Of a stretch of 64,000 nt of DNA, positions 21,364-23,380 are shown one piece after another. The position numbers and the translations under genes were made by a program. Below the pieces are notes generated by a model that ran no database searches, had not been told where the DNA came from, and saw nothing but the letters and a program-made list of their open reading frames with translations. Source of the stretch: Escherichia coli. Lineage in GTDB: Bacteria; Pseudomonadota; Gammaproteobacteria; Enterobacterales; Enterobacteriaceae. The stretch lies in assembly GCF_030013205.1 (NCBI RefSeq), contig NZ_CP122648.1; one strand, written 5' to 3'. The first letter of the stretch is position 1, and each line of letters starts with the position of its first letter.

Positions 21364-21493
21364 ACATCTACAACCTATCTTATATCACTGGGTTTTTCTG
21401 GCGTACCTTGCATATTAGAAATGGGGTGCCCAGATGGCCCATATGTTATCCAATTACCAAGGTCTTTTGTTGTTATAGGGTAATGACTCCAAC

Positions 21494-21997
21494 TTACTGA
21501 TAGTGTTTTATGTTCAGATAATGCCCGATGACCTTGTCATGCAGCTCCACCGATTTTGAGAACGACAGTGACTTCCGTCCCAGCCTTGCCAGATGTTGTC
21601 TCAGATTCAGGTTATGCCGCTCAATGCGCTGAGTATAACGCTTGCTGATAACGTGCAGCTTTCCCTTCAGGCGTGATTCATACAGCGGCCAGCCATCCGT
21701 CATCCATACCACGACCTCAAAGGCCGACAGCAGGCTCAGAAGACGCTCCAGTGTGGCCAGAGTGCGTTCACCGAAGACGTGCGCCACAACCGTCCTCCGC
21801 ATCCTGTCATACGCGTAAAACAGCCAGCGCTGACGTGATTTAGCACCGACGTAGCCCCACTGTTCGTCCATTTCAGCGCAGACAATCACATCACTGCCCG
21901 GTTGTATGCGCGAGGTTACCGACTGCGGCCTGAGTTTTTTAAGTGGCGGAAAATCGTGTTGAGGCCAACGCCAATAATGCGTGCACTGGCGCGACAT
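21494..21997 (-). CDS. insB: IS1 transposase InsB
   Basis: 167-aa ORF inside IS1, matches InsB as recalled. Confidence 0.92.
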
Positions 21998-22191
21998 CCG
22001 ACGCCATTCATGGCCATATCAATGATTTTCTGGTGCGTACCGGGCTGAGAGGCGGCGTAAGTGAACTGTAGTTGCCATGTTTTACGGCAGTGAGAGCAGA
22101 GATAGCGCTGATGTCCGGCGGTGCTTTTGCCGTTACGCACCACCCCGTCAGTAGCTGAACAGGAGGGACAGCTGATAGAAACAGAAGCCAC
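21916..22191 (-). CDS. insA: IS1 protein InsA
   Basis: 91-aa ORF with Cys-rich zinc-finger-like N-terminus (CPSCS...CSHC), matches InsA as recalled. Confidence 0.92.
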
Positions 22192-22219
22192 TGGAGCACC
22201 TCAAAAACACCATCATACA

Positions 22220-23380
22220 CTAAATCAGTAAGTTGGCAGCATCACCTGTTATAGCCATTAGATCCTTATTTGAATTAAGGTTCGTTGGTGCTGTTAGCAC
22301 TGTATCCATTTTTAACTTACCATTAGTTCCTCGCCCCCACCACGTCCATAGCGTGTCAGGTCCTATTACATTTGTATGTAACTCTTTAGCTAATTGGCTA
22401 GCAAATGAATTTTGTCCTTTACCTGTATTACAAGAAAATAACCAAACTGTCATCCCATCTTTATAATTCCCATCAAATTTAATTAGATATGCTAGATCTT
22501 TAGCTGTCATGATACTGCGCGTTGCGGATTCAATAGATGTGGGGGTACCATGCCCCCCGATTGTGAAAACGCCTGGGATATTAATCTCATCAGCTACAGA
22601 ATGGATAAGATCACTTTCGGGGTATAAATTTATATCAACCAAACCTTGCGGATCTACATTTATGACCGGATTCAACGGATACTGATAAAAATTCCATCCC
22701 CCCTTCAGCCCAATCGGATCCTGAGTGATATACCGCCCCTGCAGCGGGTCATAATAGCGGTGGCGGTTGTAATACAGGCCGGACTCCTCATCATACTGCT
22801 GACCCGGCAGGCGGATGAGCTGCTGCAGCTGGTGCGGGTTCTCTTCATTCAGCAGGTTGCCCCACTCATCGTATTCTGCGTACCACGCTGTTGCCCCTTC
22901 CGTGCTGACAAGCGCCAGCGGCAGGCCGCGATGGTCGCAGTGGTACAGGTGGATTTTTCGCGCCGGCGTGTACACCGGGTCCATCTGGTTTTGTATCTGC
23001 TCCACCGTCAGGCCGCACGATGCCAGCCAGCGGCGGCTTTCCTCACTCACCCGGTCAGCCAGGATTTCACTTTCCAGCCGGTCGAGCATCTGCACCAGCA
23101 CCGGCGGGAACACCATACTGCCACCGTCTTCACCGCCGGACTGCTGAAGGGCATCCGCCAGGCTGCGGCGCTGCGTTTTCGCCAGCTCACCGGTGGCGGT
23201 TTCGACCCTGATGAGTGGCGTGAAGCTCCCCGGCTGATAAACCGTCTGGATGCGGGTTCTGTCGTTCTGTATCGTGGTCAGCCGGTCGCCGTCCCAGCCG
23301 TACCAGGTCACTTCCGGTTTCCGTGACAGCGACATCCAGCCCGTCAGGTCCCGTTCACGCCGCCACACCCGTTTTGCCAC
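22220..23380 (-). pseudogene. rhsB: rhsB 3' portion: conserved core end (DPxGL motif) plus C-terminal toxin domain interrupted by IS1
   Basis: 386-aa frame with [13 protein letters not shown]...NVDPQGL then a variable C-terminal domain; the last 8 codons (GDAANLLI) are IS1-derived. Confidence 0.85.

Follow-up and report, generated by a model that had tools for sequence, protein, structure and literature searches.

Our analysis concerns a stretch of 64,000 nucleotides from Escherichia coli (NCBI RefSeq assembly GCF_030013205.1, contig NZ_CP122648.1; hereafter the window), in which the C-terminal toxin domain of an rhs gene is interrupted by a copy of the insertion sequence IS1 upstream of the small immunity gene yibG. 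The locus is the rhsB chromosomal position, with nikR on one side and yhhJ, rbbA, and yhiI on the other, and the window is identical (100%) across this region to the porcine enterotoxigenic E. coli (ETEC) strain ETEC4067. Three genes, yhiI, rbbA, and yhhJ, are encoded on one strand, and the opposite strand carries, in this order, a truncated ISAs1 element, an Imm57 pseudogene, a fragment of an rhs C-terminus (rhs-CT), yibG, a detached remnant of the toxin domain, IS1, the rhs core, nikR, and nikE. The toxin/immunity pair is the yibJ/yibG module of E. coli K-12, which in that strain forms an orphan behind rhsA-yibA, and not the own C-terminus of K-12 RhsB. A preliminary description of the window had named the gene rhsB, a name that fits its chromosomal position but not the type of its toxin.

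The IS1 element is complete, as judged from its length, terminal inverted repeats, and open reading frames (ORFs), and spans 768 bp on the minus strand (21479-22246), in agreement with the length given for IS1 in PMC12428005. Its termini are GGTAATGACTCCAACTTACTGAT and ATCAGTAAGTTGGCAGCATCACC, and the inverted repeats at the two ends (GGTAATGACTCCAACTTACTGAT versus GGTGATGCTGCCAACTTACTGAT) agree over most of their first 23 bases, as is typical of a family defined by a length of approximately 768 bp and imperfect terminal repeats of approximately 23 to 30 bp. According to the ORF list, insA (91 aa; 21916-22191, minus strand) and insB' (167 aa; 21494-21997, minus strand) overlap in the way that production of InsAB' via a −1 frameshift requires, and the Prokaryotic Genome Annotation Pipeline (PGAP) labels the element in the 100% identical ETEC4067 record as “IS1 family transposase, programmed frameshift” and not as a pseudogene. 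The transposase genes share the orientation of rhs and yibG. On both sides the element is flanked by identical 8-bp direct repeats, TGTTATAG, a sequence of which IS-free alleles have a single copy; the left repeat lies at 21471-21478, and the right repeat (22247-22254) encodes, on the minus strand, the residues ...AIT that precede the IS1-encoded tail. Target duplications of 8 or 9 bp are the norm for IS1 (PMC12428005), and both lengths recur where IS1 has entered this module in other strains. In its 768-bp length, imperfect inverted repeats, insA/insB' programmed frameshift, and target duplication of the 8- to 9-bp class, as well as in having entered AT-rich DNA and disrupted a gene, the element resembles known IS1 insertions in E. 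coli (K-12 copies IS1A to IS1F).

Excising IS1 and one repeat copy in silico restores a toxin C-terminus ending in ...PEKPSDIR*, with a TAG stop codon (21375-21377) 11 nt from the ATG of yibG (21361-21363). IS1 sits after codon 1378 of the repaired gene and 31 codons before the native stop of the toxin, so that the distal part of the domain, 31 codons (TKDLGNWITYGPSGHPISNMQGTPEKPSDIR) plus TAG with a conserved GxWxxF/Y strand, lies detached on the other side of the element (21375-21470, minus strand). Length, ends, ORFs, and repeats bear out the preliminary description of a complete 768-bp IS1 with an 8-bp duplication inside an Rhs C-terminal toxin domain, and the insertion indeed precedes the native stop in a frame that is restored upstream of the 155-aa gene; its distances of about 35 codons and 13 nt need to be corrected to 31 codons and 11 nt.

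With IS1 removed, the junction is 100% identical over 600 bp to the corresponding sequence of RIVM_C019217 and 99.7% identical to K-12, and such identity to uninterrupted alleles elsewhere means that the junction is not a product of chance. Moreover, the two flanks of the element in the window overlap by exactly the 8-bp repeat when placed on the orthologous gene of strain CFSAN018748. The event is a simple in situ insertion of IS1. The preliminary description had regarded the original C-terminus as uncertain should no IS-free allele exist and the restored tail have no homologue, but both turned out to be abundant: The IS-removed query matches approximately 3,437 genomes at a coverage of at least 80%, nearly all of them with an uninterrupted, single-piece match and including K-12 and O157:H7.

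A second lesion in the rhs gene

IS1 is not the only lesion of this gene; a deletion in the rhs core had been overlooked, and IS1 may not have been the first to strike. An alignment of the gene, after excision of IS1, with an intact Rhs gene of 1409 aa and the same toxin (RIVM_C019217) revealed the deletion: 16 bp that are present in intact rhs genes, AGTCGCTATCTTTACG on the coding strand, are missing between positions 23397 and 23398 (minus strand). As a result, the reading frame changes after codon 989 and runs into a premature stop at 23344-23346, approximately 390 codons before IS1 and ahead of the terminal section of the Rhs shell, the boundary motif, and the toxin. We considered an assembly artefact as the origin of this deletion and rejected it because 17 assemblies, produced in several countries, show the deletion in identical form.

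The gene is consequently split into two ORFs. Its 5′ part is a 1006-aa ORF that runs from the ATG at 26364 to the premature stop (23344-26364, minus strand; ORF list) and is recognizably an Rhs core, scoring 2073.6 bits against the NCBIfam model RHS_core (cutoff 2000) and containing YD repeats (YD_repeat_2x, E = 4e-38). Its 3′ part is an out-of-frame ORF of 386 aa that begins at an internal GTG (22220-23380, minus strand), runs into IS1, and ends there with GDAANLLI* (stop codon at 22220-22222). Since translation from the rhs start codon stops at the premature stop that follows the upstream frameshift, neither the toxin domain nor the GDAANLLI tail is translated from it; the earlier statement that these eight residues replace the toxin C-terminus is therefore correct for the reading frame but not for a product of rhs. 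A PxxxxDPxGL-type boundary motif at residues 1238 to 1247 of the repaired protein and a small immunity gene behind the toxin are what one finds in an Rhs toxin gene, but its frame is broken by the frameshift after codon 989 and by IS1 after codon 1378, and PGAP flags the gene as “frameshifted.” The rhs gene is a pseudogene that has been inactivated twice. Repairing it in silico, by taking out IS1 and one repeat copy and putting back the 16 bp, yields an ORF of 1409 aa that differs from its counterpart in CFSAN018748 by 18 substitutions and has an identical toxin domain.

Distribution and origin of the interrupted allele

Among 5,426 complete E. coli genomes, the IS1 junction is found at full length and with at least 99.9% identity in 17, all of them porcine and including Belgian ETEC strains, O139:H1, K_EC180, and the Japanese isolates EC556, EC571, and EC581. 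Precisely these 17 genomes also carry the 16-bp deletion. This pair of alleles (the deletion together with IS1 at TGTTATAG) is a clean marker of one porcine ETEC/O139:H1 clade. The related Danish swine strain CFSAN018748 has nikR, an intact 1409-aa Rhs gene, and the 155-aa yibG at the same nikR-yhhJ locus, with neither IS1 nor the deletion.

Searching for the exact IS1 isoform of the window (100% identity) returned only approximately 150 records. The 30 that were listed, plasmids as well as chromosomes, are without exception from porcine E. coli, so that the isoform is confined to this source among the genomes listed. Copies of IS1 that had entered the same module in other sampled strains are only 93% to 97% identical to the one studied here, and several of them are labelled IS1A or IS1B by PGAP. 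The lineage chromosomes among the listed records carry 13 to 21 IS1 places each, a number consistent with a recent, lineage-specific expansion of IS1. The pig isolates with the exact isoform comprise ETEC, O139:H1, O141:H4, and UMNF18, and this isoform also interrupts or abuts selB in K_EC180 and ETEC1748 and rcsA in UMNF18, which hints that IS1 is actively expanding in these lineages.

Taken as an account of structure, these data are very probably explained by an Rhs locus that is decaying in one porcine lineage (ETEC / O139:H1) through two unrelated lesions, the decay being presumably neutral or nearly so. The ancestral gene at the rhsB position would have encoded a 1409-aa Rhs protein with a C-terminal YibJ-type toxin, followed by the cognate Sel1-repeat gene yibG, and the 16-bp core deletion and the transposition of IS1 would be two independent inactivating events. 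The inserted element would be the isoform circulating in pig E. coli, and its landing may have been favored by AT-rich DNA at a time when IS1 was expanding in the lineage. The insertion was probably neutral because the gene may already have been dead or dispensable. As to yibG, the gene may have survived as a small target that has not yet been hit or may still protect against relatives with an intact toxin. Two points weigh against this account. First, each of the 17 genomes carries both lesions, whereas the nearest outgroup lacks the two of them, so that IS1 could have been the first and truly inactivating hit; second, that the insertion was neutral is something that we only infer.

A different route to the same structure would be that IS1 first entered the orphan yibJ behind rhsA and that the interrupted module then recombined between rhs cores onto the gene at the rhsB locus. 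In K-12 and many other strains, the module does stand behind rhsA as an orphan, several of these rhsA-locus orphans carry IS1, and full-length genes at three loci have the module attached to them, with intact 1409-aa fusions at the rpmE and rhsA loci. Within this very lineage, rhs cores also appear to have undergone gene conversion (see below). However, no sampled insertion at the rhsA locus lies at TGTTATAG; the orphan insertions differ in site and isoform (93% to 97% identity), and one of them has the opposite orientation. Among the complete genomes searched, the TGTTATAG junction was found only in the 17 genomes and always at the rhsB locus, where CFSAN018748 already has an uninterrupted full-length gene. 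We have therefore rejected this route, which we regard as hardly credible given the differences in site, isoform, and orientation and the intact full-length allele at the same locus.

Other IS1 insertions in the same module place this one in context. Within the toxin domain, IS1 has entered strain CUPS04 approximately 10 bp from the site in the window (duplication GGTCTTTTG, 9 bp), QEC11-421 (ATAATTCCC, 9 bp), BDSF8-3 (ACTTTCGG, 8 bp), and, in the opposite orientation, EC2 (TGCTAGATC, 9 bp). Within yibG, 29A20CPO013 (L005:3199-3966; duplication GCGAATTC, 8 bp) and MIN14 (L013:700-1467; GCGAATTCC, 9 bp) share a site and differ in isoform, and two isoforms at essentially one position in unrelated strains suggest a local preferred target, as far as can be read from these alleles. 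Further independent insertions affect yibA, the RhsB-CT/yhhH region, and the DNA downstream of orphans. IS1 prefers AT-rich targets, and the G+C content is 62% for the core, 39% for the toxin domain, and 31% for yibG. We considered the five sites in the toxin domain as a strong IS1 hotspot and rejected this idea, given that insertions are found throughout the AT-rich region, with yibA and intergenic DNA among their targets. By a rough chance estimate rather than a computed test, assuming approximately 10 to 20 IS1 copies per 5-Mb genome and approximately 3,500 module-carrying genomes, the number of IS1 insertions differs from the chance expectation by less than an order of magnitude. On the whole, the insertions seem to reflect a general susceptibility of AT-rich Rhs tips to IS1 rather than selection on this particular toxin.

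The immunity gene yibG (20896-21363, minus strand), presumed to protect against the toxin, is an intact Sel1-like ORF of 155 aa in the window (ORF list; “yibG: sel1 repeat family protein” according to PGAP), as had been described before. Its product is identical to the protein annotated in ETEC4067 and shares 147 of 155 residues (95%) with K-12 YibG, from which it differs by one 2-residue insertion, as expected of an ortholog with an intact frame. The yibG ORF is likewise intact in 14 of the 17 lineage genomes. In EC556, a 1-base deletion (A7 to A6) with a nearby C-to-T change leads PGAP to call the gene “frameshifted” (L017:6097-6563, corresponding to position 21065 of the window), and the same frameshift is probably present in EC571 and EC581; it may be real or a homopolymer sequencing error.

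These observations bear on the possibility that loss of the toxin was selected, leaving strains that keep YibG and are immunity-only, with yibG transcribed by read-through from IS1. Besides the intact yibG in 14 of 17 genomes, IS1 transcription is oriented toward yibG, the related swine strain CFSAN018748 has an intact toxin against which immunity could be useful, and a repertoire of immunity genes is an established idea for orphan modules (PMC3150448). A promoter-like site lies in the upstream end of IS1; the scan for promoters and terminators around IS1 and yibG detected no more sites than in shuffled sequence. This explanation is weakened by the apparent yibG frameshift (A7 to A6) in three lineage genomes, by other strains with IS1 inside yibG itself, and by insertions that are scattered over the whole AT-rich region instead of being targeted to the toxin, and two redundant lesions suit drift better than selection. 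Selected disarmament is thus improbable in our view. More generally, retention of the immunity gene by selection is not clearly indicated because yibG is apparently frameshifted in three genomes of the lineage and interrupted by IS1 elsewhere.

The movement of toxin/immunity pairs between full-length and orphan positions corresponds to the displacement and orphan modules of Rhs and contact-dependent growth inhibition (CDI) systems, for which Poole and colleagues (2011; PMC3150448) described insertion sequences disrupting orphan toxin fragments and proposed that strains maintain a repertoire of immunity genes. Compared to those orphans, the locus studied here is a further example with two lesions in the main, non-orphan gene and nothing new in kind. 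Compared to K-12 rhsA-yibA-yibJ-yibG, it has the same toxin domain and Sel1 immunity gene (99.7% identical over the junction at the DNA level, 95% for YibG), but here these belong to a full-length core fusion at the rhsB locus, with IS1 and the 16-bp deletion, and not to an orphan behind rhsA. The feature is real and ordinary, and 17 RefSeq genomes already have it annotated as an IS1 with pseudogene fragments; disruption of polymorphic toxin genes by insertion sequences with persisting immunity neighbors is a well-documented pattern, and the significance of one more case is small. What the locus does display is ongoing Rhs decay together with apparent core-to-core gene conversion.

The latter is illustrated by the Rhs gene that lies next to ybfA, at rhsC, in EC556 (L016:5881-10115; compare window 23384-23412), whose core lacks the same 16 bp. 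This rhsC-locus copy of the deletion is present only in the Japanese strains EC556, EC571, and EC581, and the paralogue is undeleted in the other 14 genomes of the lineage (match span of 1437 versus 1421 bp). These alleles look as though gene conversion had copied an inactivating lesion between two rhs cores.

Predicted nature of the toxin and its neighbors

The proximal part of the toxin domain, residues 1248 to 1375 of the repaired protein, lies at 22255-22639 (minus strand) and contains the invariant histidine (in GGHG) and cysteine (in FSCNTG); the residues AIT that follow are encoded in the repeat at 22247-22254. The restored domain has no sequence match in Pfam, NCBIfam, or the Protein Data Bank (PDB) and thus does not belong to any curated protease family there, though some copies are labelled “DUF8616” by PGAP. 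A whole-library phmmer search found 562 representative homologues at E ≤ 0.001, most of which lie at the very C-terminal end of Rhs proteins or of other polymorphic toxins. In an alignment of 74 sequences (numbering from VDINLYP), the only invariant columns are H30 and C70, a conserved His-Cys dyad, and G136 and F/Y141 are near-invariant. The predicted fold resembles cysteine proteases of the cysteine protease domain (CPD) type and the Tce1 type, followed in rank by gingipain, CHAT, legumain, clostripain, and caspases, and the agreement with Foldseek is weak. Tce1 and Tce2 have themselves been described as putative cysteine proteases in which a His-Cys dyad resembles that of TcdB (PMC13323088). 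Based on predicted fold and conserved dyad, the toxin is most likely a small clan-CD-like (CPD/Tce1-like) His-Cys protease.

We compared the domain to CPD-type proteases of clan CD, namely the Pseudomonas aeruginosa type VI secretion system effector Tce1 (9qpe), the CPD of Vibrio cholerae MARTX (3fzy), and the CPD of Clostridioides difficile TcdA/TcdB (3ho6). It differs from them in sequence, with approximately 12% identity and without a Pfam C80 or DUF4347 match; it is also smaller (approximately 160 aa), forms an Rhs C-terminus, and is paired with an exported-looking Sel1 immunity protein, its kinship to these enzymes being predicted only. Some homologues occur in 3 to 5 copies within giant proteins of 3,000 to 6,800 aa (P0025, P0028, P0029, P0031, and P0033), one of which has a WXG100-like N-terminal domain; many copies of a putative protease domain in one protein are an unusual arrangement for a toxin. 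A Pfam search of these multi-copy giants for a link to DUF4347 gave no DUF4347 match.

The IS1 cut falls after residue 131 of the toxin domain. It leaves the histidine and cysteine in place and removes both C-terminal strands (residues 137 to 141 and 147 to 152), which have predicted local distance difference test (pLDDT) scores above 90 in the predicted model, along with the conserved GxWxxF/Y motif. Because two conserved C-terminal β-strands are lost, the truncated domain, were it translated at all, would probably not fold properly.

YibG has only weak profile scores (18.9 bits for Pfam Sel1 with a cutoff of 30.7 and 22.2 bits for TPR_27 with a cutoff of 27). Its N-terminus, MKACLLLFFYFSFIFQLHGA followed by D, looks like a Sec signal peptide when judged by eye, and such a start suggests that the toxin may act in the periplasm. 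The literature on yibJ and yibG that we found consists of incidental mentions, without a functional study or experimental report. Their products, proteins of K-12 with no known function, can now be proposed to be a CPD-like cysteine-protease toxin and an exported Sel1 immunity protein, a testable idea and the sole, mildly new by-product of this analysis. A broader proposal would make the K-12 YibJ type (DUF8616) the founding E. coli member of a large and so far uncharacterised family of small CPD/Tce1-like His-Cys protease toxins, active in the periplasm, and the pig lineage immunity-only, with yibG kept expressed by read-through from IS1 and protecting against relatives whose toxin is still intact; as a whole, this proposal seems rather unlikely to us.

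Sel1-repeat proteins are also encoded behind Rhs genes at the rpmE (L003:7712-8185) and rhsC (L016:5388-5867) loci, and the Rhs protein at the rhsC locus carries a different toxin. From their positions, Sel1 proteins may be a recurrent type of Rhs immunity protein in E. coli.

Downstream of yibG, the rhs element ends in further remnants on the minus strand. Beside yhhJ it is bounded by a truncated ISAs1 (H-repeat) transposase fragment (19141-19575; Pfam DDE_Tnp_1_assoc, E = 1.5e-34; “ISAs1 family transposase, incomplete” according to PGAP). Between this fragment and yibG lies a decayed orphan module (19749-20862; PGAP annotation transferred from record L001) that is composed of an Imm57 immunity pseudogene (19749-20272; PGAP) and an rhs-CT fragment with a Tlde1/YkuD-like remnant (20278-20571 and 20644-20862; weak Pfam matches to Tlde1_dom and YkuD), the weak YkuD similarity being to L,D-transpeptidases. 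The same decayed Tlde1-like/Imm57 module also lies behind yibG in K-12.

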